In this document: positions 12,380 through 42,524 of the stretch, piece by piece
Position numbering within the stretch: the stretch's first letter is position 1
Layout: the number at the start of each line of letters is the position of its first letter
Assembly: GCA_965200205.1 (NCBI GenBank)
Contig: CBDAUI010000001.1
Span: 1,778,664-1,842,663, forward strand
Reading direction: 5' to 3'
Length of the DNA stretch: 64,000 bases
DNA from: Candidatus Poribacteria bacterium
Lineage (GTDB): Bacteria > Poribacteria > WGA-4E > WGA-3G
Notes under the pieces: model-generated
Told to the model about the DNA's origin: nothing
What the model saw: only the letters and a program-made list of their open reading frames with translations
Databases searched by the model: none
Program-made: the position numbers and the translations under genes

Positions 12380-12527
12380 TTTATTTATACAATTTTCGCT
12401 TGATTGGTACAGTTTGAATTCATTTAACTTCAGATTCATCGCACTCTATTAAATCATTATAAAGCCTGCCTGAAAACCAGCACCAATGCTGAAGGCATAT
12501 CCACAATTTAGGTTAGGACCTACGCTC

Positions 12528-13989: not shown

Positions 13990-14260
13990 AACCTGTTGAT
14001 AACTTGTTGATAACCCTGTTAATATTGTGTTGATAACTTGTTGATAACTTGTTGATAACCTATGTACCTCACACTCCTGTTGATAACTTGTTGATAACTC
14101 TCTAATTTATCCACAAGTTATCAACAGGGTACTTGTCAATGGTGACAAGCGTTCAGGTGAGTTATCCACTTATCAACAGCCCCTACTACTACTACTAAGA
14201 ATTATATAAATTTATATAGTAATTAGTACAAACAGTAGGTCCGTTGATAAGTCAAAAAAA
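13990..14260. other. oriC: DnaA-box cluster followed by an AT-rich DNA-unwinding element.
   Basis: About 11 TGTTGATAA/TTATCAACA 9-mers (one mismatch to the TTATCCACA consensus) lie at 13993-14098. A perfect TTATCCACA sits at 14107-14115 and TTATCCACT at 14162-14170. The AT-rich ATTATATAAATTTATATAGTAATTAGTA lies at 14201-14230. The region is in the dnaA-recF gap. Confidence 0.85.
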
Positions 14261-16409: not shown

Positions 16410-18965
<2,556 letters not shown>

Positions 18966-19139
18966 TAGTTAATAGTTATCAGTTACAAGAGGTTTTCGAT
19001 AGTTCCAAAGTCTCTTAACTGACAACTATTTGTTGGTTGTTGGTAAGAAAGTCCTCTTAACTTATAACCATTAACTATTAACCAATCACCATTAACGCAG
19101 AAAAATCGTACTGATAACTGGTAACTTATAATTATTCAG
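18966..19139. repeat. Heptanucleotide tandem repeats (TAATAGT/CCATTAA type) plus a short copy of the ~110-bp repeat family.
   Basis: The repeat units are TAATAGT TAATAGT TATCAGT and CCATTAA CTATTAA CCAATCA CCATTAA. The 21-mer AGTTATCAGTTACAAGAGGTT at 18974-18994 is the exact reverse complement of 25175-25195. Confidence 0.7.
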
Positions 19140-23228: not shown

Positions 23229-23348
23229 TTAATAGTTGTTGGTTATAAGTTATAAGTTAAGATATTGTGGTCCAAAATGTTGCTTTGGATTCCACAAGAT
23301 ACGCAATGCCACAAGAGGGTAACTAACAACTAACAACCAACAACTAAT
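23229..23348. repeat. Heptamer tandem repeats (TAGTTAA / AACAACT type) at both ends of the intergenic spacer.
   Basis: TAGTTAA TAGTTGT TGGTTAT AAGTTAT AAGTTAA ... GGTAACT AACAACT AACAACC AACAACT. Confidence 0.7.
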
Positions 23349-25064
23349 ATGAAAAATATAACGGTTTTTCTGTCCATCTTCATGCTACTGCTATCAGGAG
23401 GGTTACCGTGTCAAAGTTCGGAAGCACATCTTTGTGGAACACCACAGCTGTCTTTCATAAAAGAGGCACTTCGCGGCTCGACACAAATTTTTCCGGACGA
23501 GAACGTGCCGAGTCCGTTGGTTCCAAGTGCGCCGACATTACCGCTTGGAGCAGAGAGAACGTTTTTTGCCCCCGATTTTAGGAGTATGCAGCAATACACC
23601 GTCTCCGCTGTCCTCCGCGGGGTCGGCAATTTCTGTTACGTTTTCGTTGAAGCATCGGAATGGAACACGCGAGTTACCGCCGAAACAGTTCAGTCGATGG
23701 TGCACGCTTTTGATGCTGCAACGCCCGCGAATCCGCAACGCGGCATCTATCAGACGTTAACACAGTCTTTTGGGGCACCACCTGACATTGACGGAAACGG
23801 TAAAATTATTTTACTGCTACTTAATATTCGAGATGCTAACCCTATTGACCAGTATACGGCTGGTTTTTTCAATCCAGCGGACCAAAGTCGCGGTGTACTT
23901 AGGAACCCTGGATTTCGCCGTTTCCCAATTCGTAGTAACGAAGCAGATATGTTGTATGTGGACACACAGCCGCTTAATCCAAGTAGCGAGGCAGCTCACA
24001 ATGTCGTCGCGCACGAACTTCAACATCTTATCCACTGGGGACATGATCCGCACGAAGCCACTTGGGTCGATGAAGGCTGTGCAGGGTATGCCTCATTTCT
24101 CTGTGGTTATTCCGTTTTAGAGCATGTCGCAGCGTTTGAAAGAAACCCATCTATTTCACTCATCGCATGGCCTGAAACGGATACAGATGCCCTGCCCCAC
24201 TACGGTGCAACCTTTTTATGGATGCTGTACCTGCATGAGCGACACGGCGGTTTGCAAACATTGACCGAAATCGTCCAAAATCGAGGCACGTCGCTCAATG
24301 GCGTTGCGGATGTACTCGCATCAAATGGAAACACGACGCAGCAGATTTCTGAGATTTTCAATGATTGGAAACTCGCAAACTATCTATCTGATTATCGCAC
24401 CATAAGACTCTCTCTGGAACCGCGTCGGTGGCACCGTTCCTATCCAAGCGGCACACAGGATGGGGAGCTGCGTAATTTTTCGGCGGACTATATCGGATTT
24501 GAAGATGCTGGTGGATTGACACTCGGATTTTCAAGTCGGTCCCGCGAAAGCAGCACCGCACACGCAATTGAATTCCATAACACTGGTGATGTCCATAAAC
24601 GTGAGATCGTACTATCCACCGACGGATCGGGTTCTATTGTTTTACCGGATACTGTCAGAAACGTGATCCTAATTCCGAGTCTACAATCACAAGGAATCAA
24701 TGCCGAAACACGAAATACAGAGTATCAATATAACGCAACACGCGGCGCACACATCACTTTCGTTACTGCCGCGCTTCGGAATCCGGTGCATTCACAGTAC
24801 TGGGACATCGTTGCCGTGCCGAGTGAACCTCTCGTCGGTTTAGTACCATCTGTAACATTGATGCGCGTTGAGAACAACATTGAACGTCTCCATCAAGAAT
24901 CGCAAGCGATGTACCCAGTAACGCCAGATTCGCAAAACAACTATATGTATCGACTTTCATTTCGCCTTGATCCAGAAATAGCACCGGAATCCGTCACCTA
25001 TCAGATTTCACTGGATTCAAGAATTGTTTTGACCAAGAACGCGATTTCCGATATTAAAAGATAA
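23349..25064 (+). CDS. Secreted putative zinc metallopeptidase (HExxH).
   Basis: A signal peptide, an HELQH...WVDEG motif, and no close family recognised. Confidence 0.55.
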   Translation: MKNITVFLSIFMLLLSGGLPCQSSEAHLCGTPQLSFIKEALRGSTQIFPDENVPSPLVPSAPTLPLGAERTFFAPDFRSMQQYTVSAVLRGVGNFCYVFVEASEWNTRVTAETVQSMVHAFDAATPANPQRGIYQTLTQSFGAPPDIDGNGKIILLLLNIRDANPIDQYTAGFFNPADQSRGVLRNPGFRRFPIRSNEADMLYVDTQPLNPSSEAAHNVVAHELQHLIHWGHDPHEATWVDEGCAGYASFLCGYSVLEHVAAFERNPSISLIAWPETDTDALPHYGATFLWMLYLHERHGGLQTLTEIVQNRGTSLNGVADVLASNGNTTQQISEIFNDWKLANYLSDYRTIRLSLEPRRWHRSYPSGTQDGELRNFSADYIGFEDAGGLTLGFSSRSRESSTAHAIEFHNTGDVHKREIVLSTDGSGSIVLPDTVRNVILIPSLQSQGINAETRNTEYQYNATRGAHITFVTAALRNPVHSQYWDIVAVPSEPLVGLVPSVTLMRVENNIERLHQESQAMYPVTPDSQNNYMYRLSFRLDPEIAPESVTYQISLDSRIVLTKNAISDIKR

Positions 25065-25089: not shown

Positions 25090-25205
25090 TCGCTGGAATA
25101 GTTATCAGTTTTCAGTACGGTTTTTCTGCGAAAAACCTTTCAGTTATGAGAAAAAGACTTTGAATCTATCAAAAACCTCTTGTAACTGATAACTTTGACC
25201 GATAA
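25090..25205. repeat. ~110-bp MITE-like element with terminal inverted repeats and a central hairpin.
   Basis: TIR AGTTATCAGTT (25100-25110) pairs with AACTGATAACT (25185-25195). The central hairpin is GGTTTTTC-TGC-GAAAAACC at 25119-25137. Related copies are at 33826-33960 and 18974-19030. Confidence 0.7.
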
Positions 25206-25217
25206 AAAGGAGGAAAG

Positions 25218-26180
25218 ATGCAACCTACACTCTATGCAGGAACTATTGGACAAAGCGTCTGGCACAGTACTGACAACGGGGATACATGGCGGCGAGTCAG
25301 TAACGGACTCTTTCCTGAAGCCGACGTTCGCGCCATAGCCGTCAATCCGAGTGACGGAAATATTGTCTATGCGGGTACTGAAAACGGTGTTTTCCGAACA
25401 GACAACGCCGCTGAATCGTGGCACCGCCTTCCAAGTCCGATGGATGGACGAGAGGTATGGGCAATAGCGATTGATCCGAAGTCACCCGATACGATCTACA
25501 CCGGTACCTGTCCGTCCGCACTTTTTAAGTCCACTGATGGCGGCGAAAATTGGAAGCAACTTGAGGTCGCTTTGGCAGAGGAATGCGAAGGCGTTCCGAT
25601 TATCCCGCGCGTCACGACTTTTGTGGTCGATCCAGAAAATTCACAAACCCTCTACGCAGGGATTGAGATTGACGGGATGCGTCTGAGCACCGACGGTGGC
25701 GAAACATGGACAGAGCGGAGTGAAGGGCTTAGCAGTTTAGACATTCACGGTCTCTGTGTCGTTCCCGGTTCCCCGAAAACTATCGTTGCAGCCACGAATA
25801 ACGATGTCTGTATAACCACAGACATGGGGCAGCAGTGGACACCATTGAACGTCAAAGCACATTATCCGTGGCCCTATTGTCGCGCGGCATTCTTCCTTAA
25901 TGGCGATACCGGTAGAGTGTTCATTGGGGCAGGAAACGGACCCCCAGGTGACCAAGGAGGTATCTTCTTAACTGGTGATGTCGGAAAAACATGGAACCGC
26001 TCTGATATTGGCAGAACTGCCAACAGCACAATCTGGACATTTGCTCACAATCCGAAGGTCAACGACCTGATAATCGCTTGTAGTGTGAGCGGGCAACTCT
26101 ATCGAAGCACGGACGCAGGCAACTCATGGACGAAACTTGCACACGAATTTGGAGAAGTCCGAGCATTAGCTGTTGCATAG
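25218..26180 (+). CDS. BNR/Asp-box repeat protein (Ycf48/sialidase-like beta-propeller).
   Basis: Repeated S-x-D-x-G-x-T-W motifs (STDNGDTW, STDGGENW, STDGGETW, STDAGNSW). Confidence 0.75.
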   Translation: MQPTLYAGTIGQSVWHSTDNGDTWRRVSNGLFPEADVRAIAVNPSDGNIVYAGTENGVFRTDNAAESWHRLPSPMDGREVWAIAIDPKSPDTIYTGTCPSALFKSTDGGENWKQLEVALAEECEGVPIIPRVTTFVVDPENSQTLYAGIEIDGMRLSTDGGETWTERSEGLSSLDIHGLCVVPGSPKTIVAATNNDVCITTDMGQQWTPLNVKAHYPWPYCRAAFFLNGDTGRVFIGAGNGPPGDQGGIFLTGDVGKTWNRSDIGRTANSTIWTFAHNPKVNDLIIACSVSGQLYRSTDAGNSWTKLAHEFGEVRALAVA

Positions 26181-29087: not shown

Positions 29088-32000
29088 ATGCAATTATTCT
29101 TAAAACAGAAACAGCGGCACAAAAAATCGCGGATTGGTCTCATACTAATTGTCTCCGCTTTCTTTTTTCTCATATCGACTTTCAGAGCGTCTGCACGCGT
29201 TACCCAAGTCACATCAACCGACGGTATCACGGTTCAGTTTACATTAGCTAACCTGACTGTTTCTGAAGTTACCCGCGACAATGTTCGCTACCACGAAGTA
29301 CGCTATGCCGACTCCCGTTTCACAAGTGAACCCGGCAATCCGAAGGTTCCGGTCACACGTCTTCTGCTCGGTATACCGGTGACAGCTGACATCGATGGAA
29401 TTGACGTTTCCGCTGCACCGTCTGAAACGCGCAACGGTGTCCGTTTAGTGCCTGTCCCGATTTACGATGTGCAACAAAGAAACACCCCAGCAAAAACCCT
29501 TGAAGAACATCGGTTAGAAACCGATACTAGGCAAAAACACTTACAACACGCGGCATCACAACGTTGGGAAGAGAGGGGAAGGGCATATCAATCAAATGGT
29601 GGAAATGCGTCGTATCCGGGGTTGCCGCTTGCGCGCGTCGTCCGGGAAGGTTATATTCGGAGTCAGCGTGTCATCGCCTTAGCATTATATCCTGTGCAGT
29701 ATTTCCCGAAAACTCGGCAGTTACGCTTATATTCACGTTTCACTGTGAACATCCGTTTTTCTTACGGCAGTCAGCCATCAGCCATCGGTCTCCATCAGCA
29801 AGGAGAGGTTTTTGATAATCCGAGCACCTTTTCGCTGACTGCTGATAGCCGACAGCCGACAACCGAACCTGAGGTTTTTGAGCAAGCATTCTCTCGTCAA
29901 CTCCTCAATGCTGAACAAGCAGCGCATTTTCGGGCAGCGCGAAGAAACATCCCAGCAAAAACACCTCTGGTACCAGCAGCACCGCCGCTCTTGTCGAATG
30001 TAAGCAATACCACACGCTATAAATTGTTCGTTGAAGAGACCGGTGTCTATGCTATAACTGCAGCATCGCTCGCGCGCGACTGGGGGATAGACCTCATAGG
30101 TGCCAATCCTGCGAGGCTTCGGCTCACACACGGAGCCAGAGACGTACCGATCTATGTCAGCGGTGCAGCGGACAAAAGATTTGACCCAGAGGATGCTATC
30201 TTTTTCTTGGGACATAAACCGAAAAATCGGTATAGCCGTTGGAACATCTATTGGCTCACAGTTGACAAGAGTCAACGCATTTTGGATCGCGTGCCGCAGG
30301 TCACTGCAAACCCGACGGATCCAACGGCAACACAAGTTCCAACTTTCCGATCTAAAGTCCATTTTGAAGAAGATCACCTGACAAATAACCTCGAATTCGC
30401 CTATACAGATGGCGATAAACACGACTGGTTTACCTCGTTCGACTTCTGGTACTGGGACGGCATCAAAAACGGTGGTGACGGGGCTGAAATGCGTCTTGCG
30501 TTTCCGCTCTATGATGTCGCAAAAAGCTTTGACCCGTCACATATCTCTGTTGATTTACAGGGCGGCACACCGGTCGAACACAAAATTTTAGTTGCTATCA
30601 ACGGTGTCCGAATTGATGTCGCCGAGTGGGACTCGCAGGATTCGATCACCGTCGAGCGGACTTTGCGTACATGGGATACCTTTAAGAACAGAAGTGAAAG
30701 CGGCGAACAGAATGTTTTATCGCTTGCCCGCGTAGATTATAATGTTGATGAGGACACGACTCGGTATCCGTATCATGTCTATCTCAACCGTTTTTCTGTT
30801 GAGTATACCCGACTTTTCCGCGCTGTTGCTGACGAGTTATGGTTCAGATCGCCTGGTAGGGGCGAGGTCACCTCGCCCCTACAATCACGCACACAGCCCC
30901 CCGGCGGACGTAAACTCCAATACAGAATTGAGGCGTTCCGAGACCCAGGTGTCCACATCTTTGAAACAGATGGCACATACCTCACGGCTCAGATGCGCGG
31001 TGTTACCGTAGAACCGGATCCCGCCCGTTCAGATTTATACAATGCGCTGTTTCAGACGCTTGATACCCGAAGTGCACAGTTTATTGCGGTTTCTGATACG
31101 GCACTAAGGCAACCTCAGCGTGTCGAAGTCGTTGCGCCATCAGATTTGGCAACAGCAACGCACGGTGTCGATTATTTGGTTGTGACACACCCGAAATTCC
31201 TGCTTGCAGCGGAACGGCTATCAGCATGGCGTGCCACACCTGGTGGCGGCGGATACCGAACAAAGGTTGTCACAACTGACGATATTTATAACACCTACGG
31301 TGATGGAGCCGTCAGCCCGAAAGCGATCAAGAGTTTTCTAACACACGCCTATCAATCCTGGGCACCACCTGCACTGAGTTACGTTGTCCTCCTCGGCGAC
31401 GGCACCTTTGATTTTCGTGGTATTGATACGGAAATCCACGCCGAGCCGCCTGAACTTGACGGGTATATCCCGACGCACTACATCCGAACCGATTCCTTCG
31501 GACGTACAGCGTCAGATCACTGGTATGCGACCGTCTCCGGACACGACGAATTCACAGATTTTTATATCGGTAGACTCAGCGTCGAAACCGTTAACGAAGC
31601 CGAGGCTGTTGTCAGTAAAATCTTGGCTTACGAACAGGCACCACCAAACGACGACTGGCGCAGAAGGATCATCTCTGTTGCTGACGACGAAGTTAGCAAT
31701 TCTGGGGATTTTATATTTAAGAAGAGCCTCGACGAGATCGCGAAGGACCACACCCGATTGGGATACGAGACCGTCGAAATTTTCCTTGAGGATATTACGG
31801 ATGAGGTCGAGGCGAGACCTGATGATTTTGATGTACATCCCCAACGCCTCGCGAAAGACATGATCATTGAAGCACTCGGAGAGGGGGCTGTCCTCGCACA
31901 GTACGCCGGACACGGCGGGAATACTGTCTGGGCACACGAAATCATTTTTGACAATGTATCTGTTGATCAGGTGGAGGAAACTGACAAGGTTCCTTTTATG

Positions 32001-35000
32001 TTAGTCCTGAGTTGTTACAACGGTTATTTTGATAAACCGGGTGAACCGAGCATGGCAGAAAAGTTGTTGCGCAAAGAGAGAGGCGGGATCATCGGCATGT
32101 TGAGCGCCACACGCCTCACTTACGCCAGCGGGAACGACGCACTCAACCGTATCATCTTTGATATGCTCTTTAAACGGAACGTCCGACAACTCGGCCCTTT
32201 GAGCTTCGACTCAAAAACCGAACTTTTGATCACGGAAGGGACTGGACAGATTGATGTCATGTTAGAGTACACGCTATTTGGGGATCCGGCTCTACAGATG
32301 GCTATCGCTGATGGCGAGGTTCAACCTGCTATTGAGACGAAGACGGTCGCACCAGGGGATACACTCCGAATAGCACCCGGACATGTTCTGGATGCCGATT
32401 ATGACACAGTCAGTCAGAAGAAAAAATTTGTAAAAAATACCGATTTTGATGGAACGCTCACTGTCAAGGCTGTATTTCCCGGTAAGACAGCCGTTTCTCA
32501 AGGGGTCGCCGGGCCAGTTGAATACTACACAGGTGATGTTGTCTTGACGAAGACGCTTTCTATTAGCCGTGGGGCATATCCGACTGTTACTTTCACCGTT
32601 CCACAAAACATCGCCAGTGGCGACGCGCACGTTGAATATTACGCGCAGAGCAACACAACAGTCGCTGTTGGTGGCGATGGGTTTACTGTCAATGTCCCTA
32701 AAATTCTTGACATCCAACCCGAATTGGTCGGGGGTTTGACCGAGAACGCGACTCCGACATCTTCTTCAAAGGCACGCGTTCTCGGTCAAAAATTTCGTAT
32801 CTCTGTTCAGATTTCGGATGATAGTAGGAGCGAGGTGACCTCGCCCCTACTGGTGGTTTTGGAATGGCGGAATTTAGCGACGCGCGAGTGGGAAACTGTA
32901 CGCCTCGTTCAAGGCAGCGAGGACGGCTGGTGGACAACACCTGAACCGTTAGATGCACCTACAGACGGCTCCGCTATCCGATACGATATTCAGGTCACAG
33001 ATGCCGACGGCAATATCACCGTAAGCGATAGATTGCAATATTATCCTTATGCCTATCCGAACCTCTCTGTTGTACAGGTGCAGAGGACTGATATGATTCG
33101 TTACGGCTACAATGCTGAGCGAAAGCAGTGGTTCCTTGCAACAGATGTTCAGGTAGAAGGAGACCCTGTAGGGAATCCAGTCGAAATTAGTTTTTTTAAC
33201 GGCAATCCGGATGTTGACGAGGACATGCTTGTTGATAGCGGTGCTGTGCTTCTCGGCAGTGCACAGATACAACCCAGTGACTGGCTACAACGCACGCCGT
33301 TGATTAATTCAGGAGAGGCACCTGATGGGAAACGAGAAGAAACACCCTATCGAAAACACTATGAACCCGATCCGTTGAACGTCTTACCGATTGCGACGGC
33401 AACTTTGAACTTAACGGACCCGTTGCGTCCCGGTATACACGACATCTTTGTTTATATTGATGCAACGGAAACGGAATCGGAGCGTCCGGGTGAAGTCGTT
33501 GAAAACGACGAAGAAGATAATATCGCCTACCGGCGTATTTCTGTTGATGTCGGTGCAGTTGATGCTGCCGCTTCAGGTCAAATTATCAGTTTGGACGGAA
33601 ATTGCGTCGTTACAGTGCCATCCGGTGCGTTTCAGGATGTGGCAGTCCTTGCAGTCCGTTCTTTAGATGCGCAGCGGTTTGCTGCTATTGGATCGGAAAA
33701 CGCAGGGGGCGTACCTTCTAACCGAGATTCATTACCGATTTCCCTAAACACAATTACAGGTGTTGACGAGAACGGGCAGCCCAAGCGCGCACCGCTACCC
33801 GGTACTTCCACTTATGGGTACGAATTATCAGTAGTTAACAGTACTCAGTACGATTTTTCTGCGAAAAATCTTTCAGTTGACAGTGACAAGAGGTCTTTGG
33901 AATATCATAGCACCTCTTTAACTCAGAACCGAAAGCGCAGCGTACTGACAACTGAGAACCAGTACGCCATTGATCTGAATTTCGATTATGGAACCCTGAG
34001 AACGCAGCTTGCCGAAGAGGTGTTAGGAAGTTCGGAAGAGGCGGTTTCCGGTGGTTTAGATGTTACAGGTACACTTGACACGGCAGTTGCCGCGCGGGCA
34101 CGTGAGATGGGGGTCTACATGTTTAATTCGACACTCGGATATTGGACGCGACTTCCTTCTCAATATCTAACCGATGCTGCCGGAACACTGAGACGACGGA
34201 TACATATAACAGATATAAATGCGAAGAATGTCGGCGGTGGACAACTCCGAAATGTCCGCATCCAACCTGAAGGCGCGCGAGTCGGAAAATACGTTCTCTT
34301 TTTCACAGGACCCCGCACATACCGCGTCTTCCACGCACCTTTTGTGGACGGTGTAGACAATCCAGGAAATCCTGGCGAATTAGAAATTATTTCGCCAGTA
34401 GAGCAACTCGCAAGTTTCAGTATAGACTATCCGAACTGGACACACGGATTCGCCCTTGATATGGAACAGGATTTTGAACAACCCTTCGTATTCGGTGATG
34501 TCTGGACGTTTAACGTAACTGCGATCAGCCAAACACTGGAAGGCGGACTGAATATTGAAGGTCCCTTACAACAAGAATTACGCTGGTCCCCTGCCGGTTT
34601 CAGAGATACCAATCGGGGTACTGGCACTATCAGTTATATTGAACTCCATCGGTTAGAAACCGATGCTAGTGCAACTATGCCTGAAGATCAATGGATTGTC
34701 TTTTTCCTTACAGACACCGAATTTCAGATTGAAGGCAAGAGAACTGGGGTCTTACGTTCCGCATCTGATGGTACGCCGCTCCGTGGGACAGTCGGTCAGC
34801 CGTTCTTCTATGAACCCTACGGGTTACGGCTTCAACTAACACATGGCGAAAATCCGTTTGCACCAGGCGACAGATTCCGCTTTGAAACCCGACCTGTCGG
34901 GACGATTCGAGCGACTACCGATAGACTCGGACCGATCACACTCGTTTACAGCGACGACACCGTGCCACCAGATATCCAACTCACTATCGGTAACCAGCAG

Positions 35001-35594
35001 CATTTCGTTCCGGGTGATGCAACAGACCCTGAACCCCTTATCGGCGCAACATTAACCGATCCGAGTGGACTCGATTATCTCACCCGACCCCTATTGTTAG
35101 AACTTGGAAGGGTGTCCGGTGAATCCGAGCGCATCGCGCCAGAGGCGTATCAACTGACGCACCACCCCGGCTCGAATCAACTCGTTTTGACATATCCATC
35201 ACCAGAACTTGAACCCCGTGAGTACGAACTTCGGCTGACGGCAAGCGATGTACACGGGAACACCGACACAAAACGCATTACGTTCCGGGTTCACGACAAC
35301 CTGCAGCTGCTCTCATTTCTGAACTATCCGAACCCGTTTTCGCGTAAAACGACGCTCACATGTGAATTAACGGCACCGGCGGATTCGCTCATGGTAAAAA
35401 TCTATACGTTAAGCGGACGGATGATTCGGGAACTCTCTATCCCGGCGACTCCCGGGTTCTTGATGGTAGAGTGGGATGGCAGAGATGCGGATGGTGTTGA
35501 GGTCGCAAACGGCGTTTATTACGCTAAACTCCAGATTAAACGTGAAGGTGAAAAAGATATTACTGAGATACTCAAAATGATGAAATTGCGTTAA
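29088..35594 (+). CDS. Giant secreted peptidase C25 (gingipain-like cysteine protease) family protein with a C-terminal Por_Secre_tail/FlgD-Ig-like sorting domain.
   Basis: A signal peptide is present. A C25 N-terminal region is recognised (VDYLVVTHPKFL...WR...VVTTDDIYNTYGDG...YVVLLGDG). The catalytic His (QYAGHGGNTVWAHEIIFD) and Cys (FMLVLSCYNGYFD) match the gingipain pattern. The C-terminus reads LSFLNYPNPFSRKTTL...KIYTLSGRMIREL...WDGRDADGVEVANGVYYAKL. Confidence 0.8.
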   Translation: MQLFLKQKQRHKKSRIGLILIVSAFFFLISTFRASARVTQVTSTDGITVQFTLANLTVSEVTRDNVRYHEVRYADSRFTSEPGNPKVPVTRLLLGIPVTADIDGIDVSAAPSETRNGVRLVPVPIYDVQQRNTPAKTLEEHRLETDTRQKHLQHAASQRWEERGRAYQSNGGNASYPGLPLARVVREGYIRSQRVIALALYPVQYFPKTRQLRLYSRFTVNIRFSYGSQPSAIGLHQQGEVFDNPSTFSLTADSRQPTTEPEVFEQAFSRQLLNAEQAAHFRAARRNIPAKTPLVPAAPPLLSNVSNTTRYKLFVEETGVYAITAASLARDWGIDLIGANPARLRLTHGARDVPIYVSGAADKRFDPEDAIFFLGHKPKNRYSRWNIYWLTVDKSQRILDRVPQVTANPTDPTATQVPTFRSKVHFEEDHLTNNLEFAYTDGDKHDWFTSFDFWYWDGIKNGGDGAEMRLAFPLYDVAKSFDPSHISVDLQGGTPVEHKILVAINGVRIDVAEWDSQDSITVERTLRTWDTFKNRSESGEQNVLSLARVDYNVDEDTTRYPYHVYLNRFSVEYTRLFRAVADELWFRSPGRGEVTSPLQSRTQPPGGRKLQYRIEAFRDPGVHIFETDGTYLTAQMRGVTVEPDPARSDLYNALFQTLDTRSAQFIAVSDTALRQPQRVEVVAPSDLATATHGVDYLVVTHPKFLLAAERLSAWRATPGGGGYRTKVVTTDDIYNTYGDGAVSPKAIKSFLTHAYQSWAPPALSYVVLLGDGTFDFRGIDTEIHAEPPELDGYIPTHYIRTDSFGRTASDHWYATVSGHDEFTDFYIGRLSVETVNEAEAVVSKILAYEQAPPNDDWRRRIISVADDEVSNSGDFIFKKSLDEIAKDHTRLGYETVEIFLEDITDEVEARPDDFDVHPQRLAKDMIIEALGEGAVLAQYAGHGGNTVWAHEIIFDNVSVDQVEETDKVPFMLVLSCYNGYFDKPGEPSMAEKLLRKERGGIIGMLSATRLTYASGNDALNRIIFDMLFKRNVRQLGPLSFDSKTELLITEGTGQIDVMLEYTLFGDPALQMAIADGEVQPAIETKTVAPGDTLRIAPGHVLDADYDTVSQKKKFVKNTDFDGTLTVKAVFPGKTAVSQGVAGPVEYYTGDVVLTKTLSISRGAYPTVTFTVPQNIASGDAHVEYYAQSNTTVAVGGDGFTVNVPKILDIQPELVGGLTENATPTSSSKARVLGQKFRISVQISDDSRSEVTSPLLVVLEWRNLATREWETVRLVQGSEDGWWTTPEPLDAPTDGSAIRYDIQVTDADGNITVSDRLQYYPYAYPNLSVVQVQRTDMIRYGYNAERKQWFLATDVQVEGDPVGNPVEISFFNGNPDVDEDMLVDSGAVLLGSAQIQPSDWLQRTPLINSGEAPDGKREETPYRKHYEPDPLNVLPIATATLNLTDPLRPGIHDIFVYIDATETESERPGEVVENDEEDNIAYRRISVDVGAVDAAASGQIISLDGNCVVTVPSGAFQDVAVLAVRSLDAQRFAAIGSENAGGVPSNRDSLPISLNTITGVDENGQPKRAPLPGTSTYGYELSVVNSTQYDFSAKNLSVDSDKRSLEYHSTSLTQNRKRSVLTTENQYAIDLNFDYGTLRTQLAEEVLGSSEEAVSGGLDVTGTLDTAVAARAREMGVYMFNSTLGYWTRLPSQYLTDAAGTLRRRIHITDINAKNVGGGQLRNVRIQPEGARVGKYVLFFTGPRTYRVFHAPFVDGVDNPGNPGELEIISPVEQLASFSIDYPNWTHGFALDMEQDFEQPFVFGDVWTFNVTAISQTLEGGLNIEGPLQQELRWSPAGFRDTNRGTGTISYIELHRLETDASATMPEDQWIVFFLTDTEFQIEGKRTGVLRSASDGTPLRGTVGQPFFYEPYGLRLQLTHGENPFAPGDRFRFETRPVGTIRATTDRLGPITLVYSDDTVPPDIQLTIGNQQHFVPGDATDPEPLIGATLTDPSGLDYLTRPLLLELGRVSGESERIAPEAYQLTHHPGSNQLVLTYPSPELEPREYELRLTASDVHGNTDTKRITFRVHDNLQLLSFLNYPNPFSRKTTLTCELTAPADSLMVKIYTLSGRMIRELSIPATPGFLMVEWDGRDADGVEVANGVYYAKLQIKREGEKDITEILKMMKLR
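30856..30882. repeat. 27-nt palindromic REP-like element, in-frame inside the C25 CDS.
   Basis: GTAGGGGCGAGGTCACCTCGCCCCTAC. It encodes GRGEVTSPL. Confidence 0.8.
32824..32850. repeat. 27-nt palindromic REP-like element (inverted copy), in-frame inside the C25 CDS.
   Basis: GTAGGAGCGAGGTGACCTCGCCCCTAC. It encodes SRSEVTSPL. Confidence 0.8.
33826..33960. repeat. Intragenic, in-frame copy of the ~110-bp MITE-like element inside the C25 CDS.
   Basis: CAGTACGATTTTTCTGCGAAAAATCTTTCAGTT matches 25114-25146, with a G-C to A-T compensatory change in the hairpin stem. Confidence 0.7.
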
Positions 35595-35666: not shown

Positions 35667-36674
35667 ATGAAGAAAGGTATCATCTCCTTTATTTTTTCTA
35701 TAATGATGCTATGTGGGACTATCCAATCTGTGGATGCGAAATACACGGCGGACTTCCTGACGCTTGGTGTCGGTGCGCGCGCACTCGCTATGGGTGGCGC
35801 AGGAACAGCGTTAAGCGATAACGCTTACGCGGCTTATTGGAATCCCGCTGGGTTGGGGCAGCTGACCCGATATGAGGTCAGTTTCATGCATTCCACACTC
35901 AACGGACAGGATGCTTACGATTTTGTGAGTTACGTCCACCCACTGAAGAATCGTGGCGCGATCGGTGTCAGCTGGCTACGTGTCGGTGTTAACGATATTC
36001 CAATCACCAGCCTGCCAGTCGTGAGCCGTCCTGTCGGACCGACGAATCGTCCACAAGTGATCGGGACTTTCAACAATACAGACAACGCATTCCTACTCTC
36101 ATCTGGCTGGACAATCCCTTCCTTCAGTGGTGTCGATTTCCATCTCGGTGGTACGCTTAAGCTGCTTTATATGAGCGGCTATCGGACCACAAACGCCATC
36201 GGCGGTGGTGCTGACATCGGTTTCGTTGCAACCACTGCTGTAGAGAAACCGCATCAACTGACGCTCGGATTACAAGCGAGCGACGCTTTTCGGACAAAAA
36301 TTTATTGGAACACGCCGCCGCCATCAGCAGATATGACATCGCACACCGAGACAATATCGCCGAATCTGAAAATCGGCATTGCAACGACGCATGCCCTCGC
36401 TATTTTCCGTAGCACACTCATCTTGGCTTTGGATACCTATATCAAGGAGGGTGTTGAATTGCATGGCGGTGCCGAATGGACACTCTTCGATCTGCTTTCG
36501 CTGCGTATCGGCTTTGATGAGCGCAAGGGGATTGAAAGCGTTCGGCGTTTGACGGCAGGTGCCGGATTGAACCTACGATTCGTTACGGGTGCCGGAGCCG
36601 GATTAGACTACGCGTTTGCGAACCACCCAGCATTGGGCGGCAGCCATCGCATGTCTCTTAGGATTAGGTTTTAG
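35667..36674 (+). CDS. Outer-membrane beta-barrel protein, PorV/PorQ-family-like.
   Basis: Signal peptide. The N-terminal LTLGVGARALAMGGAGTALSDNAYAAYWNPAGLG motif is as in PorV/PorQ-family proteins. The C-terminus ends in an aromatic residue (...SLRIRF). Confidence 0.5.
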   Translation: MKKGIISFIFSIMMLCGTIQSVDAKYTADFLTLGVGARALAMGGAGTALSDNAYAAYWNPAGLGQLTRYEVSFMHSTLNGQDAYDFVSYVHPLKNRGAIGVSWLRVGVNDIPITSLPVVSRPVGPTNRPQVIGTFNNTDNAFLLSSGWTIPSFSGVDFHLGGTLKLLYMSGYRTTNAIGGGADIGFVATTAVEKPHQLTLGLQASDAFRTKIYWNTPPPSADMTSHTETISPNLKIGIATTHALAIFRSTLILALDTYIKEGVELHGGAEWTLFDLLSLRIGFDERKGIESVRRLTAGAGLNLRFVTGAGAGLDYAFANHPALGGSHRMSLRIRF

Positions 36675-36775
36675 TAGTCATCGGCTATCGACTTTCAGCA
36701 AGAAAGAGTCGTTTTATACGCTGGTTCTCCTCTTTGCTGACTGCTAACGGCTGACGGCTATCTGACTGATTGCTT
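36675..36775. repeat. Heptamer tandem repeats/MITE-like element (TGCTGAC/GGCTGAC-type), related to 61124-61242.
   Basis: TGCTGAC TGCTAAC GGCTGAC GGCTATC. It also shares CATCGGCT...CTTTCAG...AGAGT with the element at 61139-61175. Confidence 0.65.
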
Positions 36776-38951
36776 GTTCCCAATCCCAGACAAGGATAGT
36801 TCCGTCTTGTCCCGTGCTAACGAACGTCTTTCCATCCTCTGAAAAGACTAACGCCTCTACCATTGCTGTGTGTCCATGAAGTGTATTTATCTTTTCGCCA
36901 GTTTTCAAATCGAATAATTCGATTCCGCCGTTTCTAAGTCCTGCAAGAAGAACGCTGTCATCAGGAGAAAACGCTAACGATGTGGCACCGCGTGGTCCAT
37001 CTTTAAGCCGAGGTTGCTTACTGCTGCCCAACAAACGAATTTTTTGGCTACTTCCGACAGCGAGCAACGTACCGTTTGAAGAGAATGCAAGTGCTCTGAT
37101 AATATCACTATATGTGACAGTAAAATTACCGGGTCCGCCTTTCACAGCCTCTTCCATATCCTGTCCTGCAAGAAAAGGAGCTAACGCGACTCCGGTTTCA
37201 GCATCCCACATCTGTACCTTTCCACCCATGTTTCCACTGATAAGTTTCTTTCCGTCAGGCGAAAACACCAAAGCACTGATAGAAGGTGTAATATGGCGAG
37301 GCATCAAGCCTGGTGGGAATTCAAAATCACCGTTTCCATCGGCATTGTTTGGATTTTCTGGAACATTCTCTTCATCTATAAGCGAGATGTTAACGCTGTT
37401 CCCTGTCTCCGTATTCCATACATAAATTTTACCCGAGCTATCAAACGCAACTGTTTTTCCATCAGGCGAGAAAGTTATACTGTTGTTGCCCGGATTCATT
37501 ACACCATCTGTATTATTTAAGTTTGCCAACTCACGCCCTGTCTTTGTCTCCGTCAACTGAATTCGTTGACTTCCCATTCGAGAGGAGAGGGTTGCACCTG
37601 AGCCGCCTGCCTCAAAAAACATAGTGGCTTTCGCGCCGGCACTTGCGAGTTTTGTTCCATCGGGTGAAAGTGCTGAACTTTGCAATAAATCACCATGTAC
37701 AGCATCTTCGGAAGCGGTTTGTTGCGATGTGTTCAGGTCCCAAAAGTCAATGATGCCGTTAAAGGCGACACTTACGAGCGCGGAACTTTCTTCACTGAAG
37801 GATACCATTTTGATCCACTTCGTATGTTCTGTAATGCTAATAGGTAACAATCCTCCAGTTTCAGTATTCCAGAATTTGATTGTTCCATCCGTGCTGCCAC
37901 TTGCAAGCCTGCTGCCATCGGGTGAAAACGATAGGGCAATAACCCCATTTAGATGTCCGGTGAATGTTGCGATTAATTCACCCGTGCCGGCATCCCATAG
38001 ATGCACTGTTCCATCCGTGCTCCCACTCGCGAGTCGTTTGCCGTCGGAAGAGAAGGCTAATGCATTTATCCATCCTGTGTGTTTTTGTAGGATAGCCAAT
38101 TCTTCGTTCGTGTCAGTATCCCACAATCGTACCGTTTTATCTTTACTTCCACTTGCGAGTCGCTTGCCATCAGGCGAAAATTCCAAGACCAATACGTGAA
38201 CACCCTCGTCTGGGAGGAAAAACGGTTGATCGTGATTATCCTCTTGAATTGCCAACTTGCGCTCTACTGGGGGTAAAATTCCTCCGTGACCCTCAAGCGT
38301 AGACAATTTTTTACCAGTTGTTATATCCCACAATTCGATCTTCCCGACCTGACCTCCAACGGCAAATTTGTCGTGCGTGAGTGCATAAGGTTCAGGGCTG
38401 GTTCGCCGCGTCACCTTTTCCCAAGAACGGTCTTCAATATTTTTCGCATCTCCTTTTCCAGTTTCAACATCTAATCTACCGATTACGTCTGCCCAGCCTT
38501 CTAAAGTGACAAGTGCTTTTCCGTCTTCAGAGAATTGCAGTGCTGATGCCGAGCGATGACCATCAGTAAGTGATACTTTCTGACCGGTGGCTGTTTCCCA
38601 CAACTGAAGTCCGCCGCCACGAAACGAGAATTTTCCGCCGCCACTTGCGATAAATCTGCCATCGGGTGAAAATGCGATGGCTTGAGATCGCCCCGGTAAC
38701 AGGTCAATCTCTTTGCCCGTATTTAGGTCGTAAATCCATATACCGATGCTGGTTCCGACAGCGATTTGTGTGCCGTCTGGTGAGAATTGAATGGCATTAA
38801 TCCCGCCTTTTCCGAATCTTGCTTTCGCTGCTTTCGGCAGTTCCCATTTTGTATAATTTTCGGTTGTTTCGTCTATTTGTGCTTTGGCGGCGAATACAAC
38901 CGATCCGATTAGGAGTGCACATATCAGTAGAACTCTATAAAACCTATTCAT
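36744..38951 (-). CDS. Secreted WD40 repeat beta-propeller protein (paralog of the C-terminal part of the ECF-WD40 fusion).
   Basis: Signal peptide MNRFYRVLLICALLIGSVVFAAKAQ. Many WD40 repeats (FSPDG...ASGS...WD). About 85% nucleotide identity to stretches of 39094-41250. Confidence 0.8.
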   Translation of the reverse strand: MNRFYRVLLICALLIGSVVFAAKAQIDETTENYTKWELPKAAKARFGKGGINAIQFSPDGTQIAVGTSIGIWIYDLNTGKEIDLLPGRSQAIAFSPDGRFIASGGGKFSFRGGGLQLWETATGQKVSLTDGHRSASALQFSEDGKALVTLEGWADVIGRLDVETGKGDAKNIEDRSWEKVTRRTSPEPYALTHDKFAVGGQVGKIELWDITTGKKLSTLEGHGGILPPVERKLAIQEDNHDQPFFLPDEGVHVLVLEFSPDGKRLASGSKDKTVRLWDTDTNEELAILQKHTGWINALAFSSDGKRLASGSTDGTVHLWDAGTGELIATFTGHLNGVIALSFSPDGSRLASGSTDGTIKFWNTETGGLLPISITEHTKWIKMVSFSEESSALVSVAFNGIIDFWDLNTSQQTASEDAVHGDLLQSSALSPDGTKLASAGAKATMFFEAGGSGATLSSRMGSQRIQLTETKTGRELANLNNTDGVMNPGNNSITFSPDGKTVAFDSSGKIYVWNTETGNSVNISLIDEENVPENPNNADGNGDFEFPPGLMPRHITPSISALVFSPDGKKLISGNMGGKVQMWDAETGVALAPFLAGQDMEEAVKGGPGNFTVTYSDIIRALAFSSNGTLLAVGSSQKIRLLGSSKQPRLKDGPRGATSLAFSPDDSVLLAGLRNGGIELFDLKTGEKINTLHGHTAMVEALVFSEDGKTFVSTGQDGTILVWDWEQAISQIAVSR

Positions 38952-39064
38952 TTTTCCTCCATTTGTCTACGGTTTATGTAATAAATACGCAATCAATCAG
39001 TATAACTTCTGTTCAATTATACACCATTAGAATGGAGGATTGCCAAGTAGATAAGGTCTGTTTT

Positions 39065-39091
39065 GTAGGGGCTGGGTCACCCAGCCCCTAC
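39065..39091. repeat. 27-nt palindromic REP-like element (intergenic variant).
   Basis: GTAGGGGCTGGGTCACCCAGCCCCTAC. Compensatory GAGG/CCTC to TGGG/CCCA changes relative to the intragenic copies preserve the dyad. Confidence 0.75.
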
Positions 39092-39093
39092 TT

Positions 39094-42000
39094 TCACTGT
39101 TTTTCGGTGCTATGCAAACCTTTCAGGGTTTTACTCCAATCCCAGACAAGGATGGTTCCGTCTTGTCCCGTGCTGACGAGCGTTTTGCCATCGGGTGAAA
39201 AGACTAACGTCTCTACTATTGAGGTGTGTCCGTTGAGCGTACTTATTTTTTCACCAGTAGCCATATCAAATAGTTCGATGCTACCGTTTCTAAGTCCTGC
39301 GAGAAGAACGGTGTCATCAGGCGAAAACACTAAAGATTTAGCGCCACGTGGAACATCTTTAAGTTGAGGCTGCTTGCTGCCACCTAACAGACGGATTTTT
39401 CGTTCGCTTCCGACAGCGATTCGCCTGCTATCTGAAGGAAACGCAAACGTCGTAATAGGATCCCGATACCCAACGCCTTCCTTTCCAGCGAAGAAGGGTG
39501 CTAATTCAACCCCGGTTTCAGCATCCCACATCTGAACCTTTCCACCCATAGTTCCGCTGACAAGTTTTTTCCCGTCCGGTGAGAATGCTAAAGCACTAAT
39601 TTGAGGCATTTGATGGGGCATCACGTCTGGCAGCGGTGCCAAGTCGCCTTTTCCATTAGCGTTATGTTCATCTAAGATGGATACGTCAAGACGGGTGCCA
39701 GTCTCAGTGTTCCATAAATGCATTTTACCTAAACCGCCGAAGGCGACTGTTTTCCTATCAGGTGAAAAAACCATGCATGGGTACGGATTAATTCCAACGT
39801 TTACCTCATTTAATGTTGCTAATTCGTTTCCGGTACTGACATCCGTTAGACGAACTTGAGGATCCGGCATCCAAGAAGATATCATATTCCCTAGACCTGC
39901 ATCAAGGAGCATAGTCGCTTGTGCACCGACACTTGCGAGTTTTGTTCCGTCCGGTGAAAATGCTAAAGTTGGTAAAAAATCTCGATGTCCAGTATTTTGC
40001 GAACCGGTTTTCTGTGATGTTTTCAGATCCCAAAAAGTAACGATCCCATTAAATGCGACGCTTGCGAGTGTGGAACTATCTTTAAAGAAGGAAACAGCCT
40101 TCACCCACTCGGTATGCTCTGTAATATTGATCGGTAGCAAATTCCCGTTTTCCGTGTTCCAGAACTTTATTTTTCCATCAGCACTTGCACTCGCGAGTGT
40201 TTTACCATCCGGTGAAAACGATAGTGCAGAGATGCTGTTTAGATGTCCGTTGAGCGTCGTGATCAGTTCGCCTGTTTCAGTATCCCATAAATTCACTGTT
40301 TTGTCGGTGCTTCCACTTGCGAGTTTTTTCCCGTTCGGAGAGAACGCTAATGTGTTTGTCCACCCGGTGTGTTTTCCAAGAGTAGCCAATTCTTCGTTAG
40401 TATCGGTATCCCATAATCGTACCGTTTTATCTTTACTTCCGCTTGCGAGTTTTGTTCCGTCCGGCGAAAACTCAAGGACTAAAACGTGGTTGCTGCCTTG
40501 TAGTAAAAGTGGTATCTCTTCCCTAATGATAACAGGTGGAGCAACTTTCTTCTTCATCTGTAAAGGCCGAGGTCCCTTCACTTGAACTTTCTCATCTTTA
40601 TCCGCCTCAATTGTACGCGCCTTCAAATCTTTATCTGCTTCTACTATAAAAGAAGGCAGTAGTGGTGATGCCTCAATATTCTTTATTTTCGCTTTGAGGG
40701 TAGATATTTTTTTACCCGTCATTGTGTCCCATAGTTCTATTTTCCCATCTTTTCCGCCAACTGCAAATTTGTCGTGTGTAAGTGCATAGGGTTCAGGCAT
40801 AGATCTCGATTTTATCATTTCCCAAGACCGTTCCTTTATATTTTTCACATCCGCTTTTCCTGTTTCAACATCTAATCTACCAATCGAGTCTCCCTGATTT
40901 CCTAAAGTGACAAGCGTTTTCCCATCTTCAGAGAATTGCAATACTGATGCAGGAGGCGTACCGTCAGTAAGTTCCACTTTCTGACCCGTAGCAATCTCCC
41001 ACAATTGAAACCCCGCGTGAAATGTATATCTACCACCACCACTTGCGATGAATCGTCCATCAGGCGAAAAAGCGATGGATTGGCACATACCAGGGAACAT
41101 CGTAATCTCTTTTCCCGTTTTTAGGTCGTATAGCCACACACCGATATTACTACCGACAGCAATTTGTGTGCCATCTGGCGAGAATTGAAGCGCGTTGATA
41201 CCACCTTTTCCGAGCCTCGCTTTCGCCTCTTTAGGGAGCTCCCATTTTGTGTAATCGTCGGTAAGTTCATCAGCGTGTGCTTCCGCAACGAGTGCTGGTG
41301 CATCCTCGGGAAGTTGTTCCGATTTGCTGCTTCTACCCGGTATGTTGGTGCTTCCGATCTGTGTTCGCGTATCCGGTTTAGACGCAACGTTCAGCACGAT
41401 AGGTGTTTCGATCAGTTCAATTGTCATCTCTGACGCGGCATCGAGGCTATACAGCTTCTGGAAACGGAGTGCATGTTGCTGGTTTCCGATGCCCAGCATC
41501 AGCAATAGCACTGCAACCGTGGAAGCGGCGATTGCCCACGGCATAAAGGGTTTAGCACCGGAGGGTGCGGCGGGTTTAATGCGGGCGACCTCTCGCATAA
41601 TATTCTCTGTGAGGTTTGGCGTGATCTGGAAGTTTTCTAAAGCCTCACGAATCATCGGCTCCTCTTTCTTCAAGTGCTGCTGCGCACGGCGGAGGCGACT
41701 CTTGATTGTGTTTTTCGATACGCCCAAAAACGTGCCAATCTCCGTGCAGGACATCTCGGCGAAGTAGTGAAGCGTGATAACGGTGCGTTCGCTGTCCTGT
41801 AATTTTTCAAGCAGCTTCTTAACGACATCCCGTTGGGCTTCTGCGGTTGTGCGTTCATTTTCCGCAGCGACGTATCCAGAATATGTCGCCTTTTGTCGCT
41901 GCTCGTTGTCTGTTTCCTCAAGCTCCTCAAGAGGTTGCGTCCACAACCGCTTTTTACGGAGCCAAGAGCTGCAACGGTTCGCCGCGATGACATAGAGCCA

Positions 42001-42213
42001 ACTTGCGAACCGCTGAGGCTTCTTGAGTGTGGAAAGCCGCTTATATGCGTTCAGAAAAGTGTCCTGTGTGATCTCCTCAGCGATATGGAAATCCCCGATT
42101 TTACGCCATGCGAGGGCGTGCACCTGTTTCTGATATTTTCTCACCAGCACAGAAAAGGCATCATCGTCGCCTTCAAGGACGCGTTGGATGAGGTCAGCAT
42201 CGTCGTTTTTCAT
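39094..42213 (-). CDS. ECF-type sigma-70 factor fused through one TM helix to a large WD40 beta-propeller domain (ECF sigma with WD40 C-terminal extension).
   Basis: The N-terminus has sigma70 region 2 (LIQRVLEGDDDAFSVLVRKYQKQVHALAWRKIGD...EEITQDTFLNAY) and region 4 (ERTVITLHYFAEMSCTEIGTFLGVSKNTIKSRLRRA). A TM helix (AIAASTVAVLLLMLGIG) and WD40 repeats follow. GGAGG RBS. Confidence 0.8.
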   Translation of the reverse strand: MKNDDADLIQRVLEGDDDAFSVLVRKYQKQVHALAWRKIGDFHIAEEITQDTFLNAYKRLSTLKKPQRFASWLYVIAANRCSSWLRKKRLWTQPLEELEETDNEQRQKATYSGYVAAENERTTAEAQRDVVKKLLEKLQDSERTVITLHYFAEMSCTEIGTFLGVSKNTIKSRLRRAQQHLKKEEPMIREALENFQITPNLTENIMREVARIKPAAPSGAKPFMPWAIAASTVAVLLLMLGIGNQQHALRFQKLYSLDAASEMTIELIETPIVLNVASKPDTRTQIGSTNIPGRSSKSEQLPEDAPALVAEAHADELTDDYTKWELPKEAKARLGKGGINALQFSPDGTQIAVGSNIGVWLYDLKTGKEITMFPGMCQSIAFSPDGRFIASGGGRYTFHAGFQLWEIATGQKVELTDGTPPASVLQFSEDGKTLVTLGNQGDSIGRLDVETGKADVKNIKERSWEMIKSRSMPEPYALTHDKFAVGGKDGKIELWDTMTGKKISTLKAKIKNIEASPLLPSFIVEADKDLKARTIEADKDEKVQVKGPRPLQMKKKVAPPVIIREEIPLLLQGSNHVLVLEFSPDGTKLASGSKDKTVRLWDTDTNEELATLGKHTGWTNTLAFSPNGKKLASGSTDKTVNLWDTETGELITTLNGHLNSISALSFSPDGKTLASASADGKIKFWNTENGNLLPINITEHTEWVKAVSFFKDSSTLASVAFNGIVTFWDLKTSQKTGSQNTGHRDFLPTLAFSPDGTKLASVGAQATMLLDAGLGNMISSWMPDPQVRLTDVSTGNELATLNEVNVGINPYPCMVFSPDRKTVAFGGLGKMHLWNTETGTRLDVSILDEHNANGKGDLAPLPDVMPHQMPQISALAFSPDGKKLVSGTMGGKVQMWDAETGVELAPFFAGKEGVGYRDPITTFAFPSDSRRIAVGSERKIRLLGGSKQPQLKDVPRGAKSLVFSPDDTVLLAGLRNGSIELFDMATGEKISTLNGHTSIVETLVFSPDGKTLVSTGQDGTILVWDWSKTLKGLHSTEKQ

Positions 42214-42284
42214 GAGTCGCCTCCAAAAATGAATAGTTAACGTGAGCTTGATAAATACTTAAGGCAGACACATTTGCTCTTAAA

Positions 42285-42340
42285 GTCCCCCAACCCCCCT
42301 GATAAGGGGGGACATGGGGGGTTGGGGGATTTAGGGGGTT
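42285..42340. promoter_or_regulatory. G/C-tract palindrome with G-quadruplex potential in the promoter region of the ECF-WD40 gene.
   Basis: CCCCCAACCCCCC at 42287-42299 and its exact reverse complement GGGGGGTTGGGGG at 42316-42328, plus GGGGGG and GGGGG tracts. Confidence 0.5.
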
Positions 42341-42524
42341 GTATTCCTAAAAATAGTTGCTTTTTCAGAGAGTATATTGTTTTTTGCTCAATGTGCGTCC
42401 ACCTTGAAAACCTCTAATATTTTTTCAAACTGGTGTTAGTTACGTAATTGTGCGTTCAGATCTGGTGACGCTACTTAGGTGCGGAACGGGTGCATAATTC
42501 TGCAAAAAACGCTACCCCCTTCTT

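Follow-up and report, generated by a model that had tools for sequence, protein, structure and literature searches.

How does a repeat that normally lies between genes come to be read as part of a protein? The question is raised by a stretch of 64,000 nt of Candidatus Poribacteria DNA (contig CBDAUI010000001.1, positions 1,778,664 to 1,842,663 of the forward strand; hereafter the window, numbered from its first letter), in which a palindromic repeat lies inside a C25 peptidase gene without breaking its open reading frame (ORF). We call this repeat copy B and its two intergenic relatives copies A and C. In our assessment it is probable that copy B belongs to an abundant, modular and normally intergenic family of palindromic Poribacteria repeats, and that it is translated in frame as the linker of a sortase resembling PorU of the type IX secretion system (T9SS).

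Copies of the element and the host gene

The copies, their parts and the host gene are as follows.

25100-25194, plus strand: copy A, 95 nt, complete and intergenic, with ORF 23349-25064 on one side and a BNR/sortilin-like ORF (25218-26180) on the other
25119-25137, plus strand: hairpin of copy A, GGTTTTTC-TGC-GAAAAACC
29088-35594, plus strand: host ORF, 2168 aa, with Propeptide_C25, Peptidase_C25 and a T9SS-type C-terminal domain
33825-33965, plus strand: copy B, repeat-derived DNA whose 47 codons make up the entire linker of residues 1580-1626 (LSVVNSTQYDFSAKNLSVDSDKRSLEYHSTSLTQNRKRSVLTTENQY)
33846-33876, plus strand: hairpin module of copy B, the frame CAGTACG...CTTTCAG around GATTTTTC-TGC-GAAAAATC
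33886-33922, plus strand: central stem-loop module of copy B, ACAAGAGG...CCTCTTTAAC, akin to AAGAGACTTTGGAAYTATC..CCTCTTGTAAC of copies A and C
33931-33945, plus strand: right-arm module of copy B, GAAAGCGCAGCGTAC, which corresponds to the 'empty' frame (GTACG-CTGCG-CTTTC) in reverse complement
18966-19139, minus strand: copy C, filling the whole gyrB-gyrA spacer

Copies A and B share a 34-nt core, TCAGTACGRTTTTTCTGCGAAAAAYCTTTCAGTT, of which the window holds exactly two occurrences, one between genes (25112-25145) and one inside the C25 ORF (33845-33878); dinucleotide-preserving shuffles are expected to contain none. The initial annotation of this DNA had described such an element at both places, and the core bears it out. 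It had also noted the 11-nt inverted ends of copy A (AGTTATCAGTT / AACTGATAACT), which are present and pair in the predicted fold. Their interpretation as the terminal inverted repeats (TIRs) of a transposon has to be given up: they are the outermost units of inverted 7-nt arrays, (AGTTNTC)n and (GANAACT)n.

Copy B leaves the host ORF free of stop codons, as was first reported, and its extent is slightly larger than the 33826-33960 given at that time. The only frame in which it can be read through is the one that is used; each of the five others contains 1-5 stops. The hairpin spans 33852-33870 (stem arms at 33852-33859 and 33863-33870), and the encoded peptide includes NLSVDSDK and SLEYHSTSLTQNR. 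The frame supports translation of copy B within a protein that is predicted to be secreted.

Copy C had been taken for a short derivative without a hairpin. It is a full-spacer element, with the left arm and half of the hairpin at 19096-19137, the right and central part at 18965-19016, and other 7-nt arrays between them. The left half of the hairpin is retained (CAGTACGATTTTTCTGCG, 19096-19113), and about 70 nt of other 7-nt repeats stand in place of the right half, so that the hairpin is disrupted rather than missing. The exact word that copies A and C have in common in inverted orientation (25172-25194, and 18974-18996 on the minus strand) is real, and at 23 nt is longer than the 21-mer first counted.

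The best NCBIfam match of the host protein was PorU, the sortase of type IX secretion, with a score of 394.8 bits, below the cut-off of 420; the product of the downstream gene (35667-36674) matched the PorV/PorQ family above its cut-off. We regard the host protein as a PorU-like T9SS sortase from these matches, and it is probably exported because it carries a T9SS C-terminal domain. Its earlier description as a surface protein therefore stands as regards predicted secretion, although a sortase beside a PorV-family gene differs from a generic surface protease. Full-length orthologs (58-86% identity) numbered more than 115, all from Candidatus Poribacteria wherever the source names them, and in eight fetched loci the gene order was a zinc alcohol dehydrogenase gene, the C25 gene and then usually a PorV-like gene. 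An AlphaFold model of residues 1380-1830 had a mean predicted local distance difference test score (pLDDT) of 49.7, which was too poor for fold searches. In this model, poor overall, the copy B peptide (model residues 206-247) coincides exactly with a stretch of pLDDT <50 between two predicted strands; the peptide would be a hydrophilic and probably disordered spacer.

A family of modular repeats with covarying hairpins

We scanned about 185,000 species genomes with the pattern TACGNTTTTTCNNNGAAAAANCTTT, in which two compensating positions and the loop were left free. At least 117 stretches matched, and 113 of those listed came from about 29 Poribacteria genomes. The remaining four (L049, L066, L085 and L117, from Sagittula, Paralachnospira, Aggregatilineaceae and Phocaeicola) had no family flanks and were rejected as chance matches from other phyla. 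Among the scan matches listed, the family is thus found almost only in Poribacteria. These many further copies agree with the earlier proposal of a structured element, which is a non-coding, multi-copy repeat; hairpin and arrays were found throughout the Poribacteria stretches.

The order of parts in the family is (AGTTNTC)n, the hairpin frame CAGTACG...CTTTCAG, 7-nt repeats, a central AAGAG...CTCTT stem-loop, and again 7-nt repeats in inverted orientation. In family copies, (AGTTNTC)n always adjoins the hairpin on one side and inverted arrays on the other. Inverted heptamer arrays occur in about 110 loci and likewise in the window, which holds twelve period-7 arrays, nearly all in spacers, with inverted ones at 18963-19080 and 23230-23349. 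The latter spacer, between a TPR gene and ORF 23349-25064, forms a long hairpin of the arrays GTTATAA / AACTAAC and lacks the hairpin module.

Further small modules recur in these mosaics, namely GTTTGCCTCGCAGTGAGAG, GGTGTTTTTGCTTGGGTGTTTC and the right-arm module of copy B, of which 11 copies were found in 11 sources. Certain modules are present or absent at differing positions in clearly orthologous elements (L033/L036/L041; L017/L040). The supposed fixed unit of about 110 bp is therefore better described as a mosaic, in which smaller modules vary independently of one another. One module some 16-19 nt long, CTCTCACTGCGAGGC(A) or the reverse complement of this, was present, absent or displaced in orthologous elements (L033/L036/L041; L017/L040; L107/L008/L050), which suggests that it moves on its own.

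The hairpin module of copy B is identical to the commonest variant of the family, which occurred 60 times in the fetched loci. Outside the core, copy B was only 70-79% like its best relatives, while the core is that of the family majority. Copy A was 84-88% identical, over about 100 nt and without gaps, to copies in spacers of other Poribacteria genomes; in some genomes with such A-like copies, the C25 protein was only 71-82% identical to the query. From this difference we infer that A-type units are either under constraint or continually re-seeded. Copies within one genome were 10-15% diverged. No Rfam family matched at its gathering score anywhere in the window, and our literature searches found no paper describing repeats of this kind in Poribacteria.

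Five family copies lie on IMG/VR contigs classed as viral (L126-L130). At least two of these are on one 78,675-bp contig that is apparently the contig PYJC01000177.1 of a Poribacteria metagenome-assembled genome (MAG), and hence nothing points to a phage vector for the family; the contigs listed as viral may be prophage regions or misclassified.

Among about 123 copies (the scan matches listed and those of the window), copy B alone lies within a real long ORF, so the habit of the family is near-exclusively intergenic. Two other candidates for in-ORF copies (L011 and L104) were rejected; here the element falls within roughly the first 30-40 codons of an open stretch, and the true start most likely lies downstream of it. 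Where genes flank a copy on both sides, 74 copies lie between co-directional genes (42 antisense, 32 sense), 12 between divergent and 7 between convergent ones. The elements usually occupy the entire spacer, and the spacers on either side of the C25 gene hold differing elements in different genomes. From an unbiased sample, the density can be roughly extrapolated to one hairpin module per 10-20 kb of Poribacteria DNA. The arrangement of the copies between genes does not look like that of terminators. An intrinsic terminator was also rejected on account of the weak stem (-5.5 to -7.5 kcal/mol), the missing U-run after it and the lack of bias in orientation or towards gene 3' ends.

The change from G-C to A-T between the hairpins of copies A and B, pointed out in the initial annotation, is truly compensatory and is one instance of a family-wide covariation. 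At the two free positions (N5/N21), family copies had 89 A..T and 34 G..C pairs and no mismatch, and A..C and T..T were seen only in the non-family chance matches. The lengths of the T-run and A-run were equal (4/4 in 8 cases, 5/5 in 129, 6/6 in 6 and 7/7 in 4), with a few unequal pairs in bystander copies at the same loci. Bystander copies had two G..T pairs versus no A..C, numbers too small to separate selection at the RNA level from selection at the DNA level. The frame CAGTACG...CTTTCAG also houses other stems (GAATCG-GGTA-CGATTC, AGAACG-GGTA-CGTTCT, GGAACG-AATA-CGTTCC and GTTGC-TAC-GCAAC) and occurs in an 'empty' form with CTGCG alone. The covariation may reflect either selection for DNA or RNA structure, or arm-to-arm templated correction of quasi-palindromes. 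We judged a binding site for a dimeric protein to be an unlikely cause of the symmetry, as arm length and sequence vary freely while staying complementary.

The entire copy B folds into a long imperfect hairpin, with z-scores against shuffles of -4.3 on the plus strand and -5.75 on the minus strand. In its minimum-energy fold the left frame pairs with the right-arm module and the small hairpin is unformed. The z-scores of whole-element folds were -2.8 and -3.2 for copy A and -4.2 for copy C.

The linker site and how it was filled

Copy B occupies the linker between the motifs YGYEL and IDLNFD. In an alignment of 116 orthologs, this linker, between YGYE(L/I) and (I/V)DL(N/S)FD, was hypervariable, and the insert region is not conserved in homologs. 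Its length ranged from 16 to 47 aa, and 115 proteins fell into 58 clusters at about 60% identity; the 47-aa linker of the window is the longest and unique. The mean identity over the whole C25 protein was 71% per residue. The linker DNA was read in eight orthologs (L118-L125), seven of which carry repeat modules.

L118 (P0010, 82% identity): 7-nt arrays, central stem-loop, and hairpin GGTTTTTTC-TCC-GAAAAAACC (6/6 variant) in the other arm and in opposite orientation
L119 and L121: (CAGTTNC)n, central module CAGCAAGAAACC.CTTTAACTG and inverted units
L122: linker module AACTCTCACTGCGAGGCAAAC
L123: short 7-nt-type units CAGCCAT/CAACCAT and inverted CTGATGG (read less closely than the other loci)
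L124: complete element with the usual ends GGAATAG...CTATTAAA, beside a retained ancestral KLASPVA
L120 versus L125: insertion of 36 nt with a GTAG palindrome in L120; L125 is empty at ACGGAA|TCTGAA

In L118, the conserved YGY(E/Q)L codons (TATGGTTAYGAA / TATGGTTATCAG) run seamlessly into the 7-nt array. These loci show that, as judged from their DNA, differing modules in both orientations have independently occupied the same linker in other lineages. No trace of the ancestral linker of about 17 aa is left in the lineage of the window, which argues that copy B replaced it and did not merely interrupt it. What had been seen as a simple insertion would therefore be one filling of a recurrent landing pad.

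Target-site duplications were not visible at copies A and B, L118, L124 or the other in-ORF elements examined. Copy B is flanked by one repeat only, GTACG, which is among the family's own motifs and belongs to the conserved codons for YGYE. As to the suggestion that the element may still be mobile, the orthologous sites do differ in repeat content, and this supports a turnover of repeats that continues on an evolutionary scale; a transposase partner was not identified. Of 114 intergenic copies, 85 were open in at least one frame over 96 nt, mostly in forward orientation, in which the family is naturally stop-poor.

Other segments of the C25 gene, and other places in the window, also contain repeat-derived DNA.

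About 29765-29870: heptamer and central-module element in the C25 gene (residues 232-256, a hypervariable segment near the N-terminus)
30856-30882, 32824-32850, 39065-39091 and 45761-45787: GTAG-tagged palindromes, GTAGGGGCGAGGTCACCTCGCCCCTAC, similar to repetitive extragenic palindromic (REP) sequences
29475-29500, 29940-29965, 33335-33360, 5100-5125 and 48591-48616: GAAACACCCAAGCAAAAACACC-like module (GAAACACCC..AAAAACACC)

The element near the N-terminus is in frame and consists of TCAGCCA units, the reverse complement of the central module, and AGCCGAC units. Two of the GTAG palindromes, at 30856 and 32824, are in frame in the C25 gene and encode GRGEVTSPL and SRSEVTSPL; of the remaining two, one is intergenic and the other is a diverged copy in the NamZ gene. 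The GAAACACCCAAGCAAAAACACC-like module matched 34 times in 23 sources. Three of its copies are in frame in the C25 gene and encode peptides of the RNTPAKT type that are absent from most orthologs, one adjoins a 13-nt tandem repeat in a spacer, and one is in a PGI-like ORF. The GEVTSP signature was found at five distinct sites across six orthologs. Both peptide signatures are thus sporadic and differently placed in different orthologs, and on this ground repeats have inserted into the C25 gene many times.

We propose that the linker is a structurally permissive site. Selection would filter arrivals only for frame and for the absence of stops, and the peptide itself would need no function. The complementarity of the hairpin, as seen in the G-C to A-T change, the matched runs and the swapped stems, would belong to the DNA or RNA biology of the element and not to the protein. 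Arrival may have occurred by copying between 7-nt arrays, either through recombination or through template switching during replication, or through a hairpin-dependent enzyme that makes no duplication; these routes are more likely than a classical cut-and-paste transposase.

Several points weigh against this interpretation. Target-site duplications, a transposase and near-identical recent copies were all lacking among the copies and sites examined, so that movement itself is deduced only from the differences between orthologous sites. The poor AlphaFold model leaves the disordered, permissive loop weakly supported. Moreover, the match of the core of copy B to the family majority, with the rest of the copy diverged, could mean that something which our account does not capture keeps the hairpin intact within the gene.

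Alternatively, the linker may have grown in place with no mobile unit involved, as a 7-nt microsatellite that expands and contracts and gains modules by slippage, template switching at quasi-palindromes and gene conversion from other arrays, with compensation as a mutational by-product of palindrome correction and not a result of selection for structure. The seamless transition from conserved codons to array in L118 and the substitution of copy B for the ancestral linker, rather than its addition, agree with such a course, as does the absence of target duplications at the sites examined. The matched T- and A-runs and the 'empty' frame are also what arm-to-arm templated correction is expected to leave behind. 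However, the identity of A-type units across species, higher than that of the C25 proteins, indicates constraint or re-seeding and not local drift, unrelated stems share one frame, and the clean insertion of a GTAG palindrome at the same linker shows discrete units arriving. We consider growth in place rather doubtful, if the least doubtful of the alternatives.

The ends and the dispersal of the element could be explained by a classical MITE (a miniature transposable element with inverted repeats), that is, a fixed non-autonomous transposon of about 100 nt with TIRs, which a DDE transposase encoded elsewhere would have cut and pasted into the C25 gene. The inverted ends of copy A are paired in its fold, orthologous sites can be filled or empty, the copies are many and dispersed (at least 113 stretches in about 29 genomes), and A-type units of about 100 nt recur whole, 84-88% identical, in many genomes, with several loci in each. 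Yet the ends are 7-nt arrays of variable number with no defined termini, the modules vary independently and nest in one another, and direct repeats do not flank A, B, L124 or L118. The divergence between copies of one genome gives no sign of a recent burst. Transposase genes do not adjoin A, B or C in the window, and no insertion sequence with the same ends turned up, though none was systematically searched for. With neither a target-site duplication nor a transposase partner found, we regard the status of the element as a classical MITE as unlikely.

We give similarly little credence to an adaptive origin, in which the linker would be an exposed region of the sortase under diversifying selection (recognition by phage, host or predator) that recruits repeats as a source of peptides. 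The 58 linker types among 115 orthologs between highly conserved flanks, the repeat modules in several other variable segments of the protein and its probable export through the T9SS C-terminal domain would be in keeping with this. Relaxed constraint accounts equally well for the variation, however; there is no evidence of selection on the linker peptide, exposure cannot be read from so poor a structure model, and the same modules occur inside genes of cytoplasmic enzymes (NamZ and the PGI-like ORF). A further reading is that the hairpin module (about 25-32 nt) is a very small element with a mobility of its own, directed to 7-nt arrays by a hairpin-dependent mechanism undescribed in the phylum; the PorU-like linker would then be a landing pad by which sponge symbionts diversify an exposed part of the T9SS. 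This too strikes us as improbable.

Repeats are classic sites of mis-assembly, but an artefact, be it mis-assembly or an ORF that is in truth two genes or a pseudogene with copy B as spacer, is very improbable given that the ORF is continuous and copy B open in that frame only, that all 115 full-length orthologs keep one ORF here with linkers of many lengths, all in frame, and that independent assemblies carry repeat modules at the same place.

Known repeat systems and other features of the window

Palindromic repeats in frame within conserved genes have been reported for Rickettsia palindromic elements (RPE), enterobacterial repeat units, pneumococcal repeats and GTAG/CGTC REPs (PMC3184786, PMC3733652). 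According to summaries of Ogata et al. 2000 (PMC3184786, PMC3733652), RPE are non-coding palindromes of 100-150 nt that occur both in spacers and in frame within conserved genes, to which they contribute a short peptide while the protein survives. The Poribacteria element is likewise palindromic, intergenic, and in frame in a conserved gene, where the hypervariability of the site in 115 orthologs supports its being tolerated. In contrast to RPE, it is built of 7-nt tandem arrays with nested small hairpin modules, and one linker is occupied repeatedly by differing modules across more than 100 orthologs. As the phyla are unrelated, no sequence relation is expected, and the likeness is one of analogy, not membership.

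The short tandemly repeated repetitive (STRR) sequences of filamentous cyanobacteria are heptanucleotide arrays that form hairpins between co-transcribed genes (PMC2670836). The Poribacteria element shares with them 7-bp tandem repeats, inverted arrays and hairpins in spacers, but its host is Candidatus Poribacteria. Its unit is AGTTNTC, whereas STRR units are CCCCAGT and similar. In Nostoc, small dispersed repeats (SDRs), reportedly the subject of work by Elhai and colleagues in 2008, are said to be very small modules (about 15-30 nt) that nest in larger repeats and are present or absent at orthologous positions. On that description, the small nested modules of Poribacteria and their presence or absence at orthologous positions resemble SDRs.

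REPs and the bacterial interspersed mosaic elements (BIMEs) that they form are short palindromes alternating in orientation, and genic copies of GTAG REPs encode 10-30 residues (Di Nocera et al. 2013, PMC3733652). The spacer mosaics of short palindromes, some of them intragenic, are similar, and GTAG-tagged palindromes occur in the same C25 gene. However, the hairpin of copy B has an 8-bp A/T-rich stem and no GTAG/CGTC tag, the family has no bias to gene 3' ends, and a partner of the REP-associated tyrosine transposase (RAYT) type was not identified. The MITEs of bacteria, for example Nezha, Correia and ERIC, are small and dispersed, with inverted ends, stable folds and occasional in-frame fusions to ORFs (review PMC3184786). 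The Poribacteria element resembles them in all these respects, its folds being predicted, and differs in its array ends of variable length, in lacking a target-site duplication and in having no matching insertion sequence among those seen (none was systematically searched for).

Taken together, the comparisons suggest that the Poribacteria element works like these systems and is a member of none, since no target duplication was found, a REP tag is missing, the host lies outside the cyanobacteria and Rfam gave no match. Selfish repeats within genes are already known from other bacteria; the present family and its recurrent landing site appear to be undescribed. Among more than 100 orthologs, one linker of a conserved single-copy secretion gene has independently taken up repeat modules of at least four kinds, lying in both orientations. 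This constitutes an unusually clear natural experiment, in which the conversion of non-coding repeats into coding sequence can be studied, and the linker could be used for strain typing of uncultured sponge symbionts. The family-wide covariation of the stem offers a handle on whether the hairpins act as DNA or as RNA. Annotators and assemblers should be aware that repeat-derived peptides in Poribacteria genomes are real.

Two further regions of the window were noted. The segment 12486-21677 contains dnaA (12486-13931), followed by a recF-like gene, dciA, gyrB and gyrA, and looks like a chromosomal replication origin region. About ten DnaA-box-like 9-mers (TGTTGATAA / TTATCCACA) and an 11-nt tandem repeat lie at 13990-14180, and an AT-rich stretch at 14195-14235. 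On the minus strand, 36744-43643 encodes two large WD40-repeat paralogs (735 and 1039 aa) with DNA blocks of 74-80% identity, adjoined by a third WD40-like ORF. Eukaryote-like repeat proteins such as WD40 are typical of Poribacteria.

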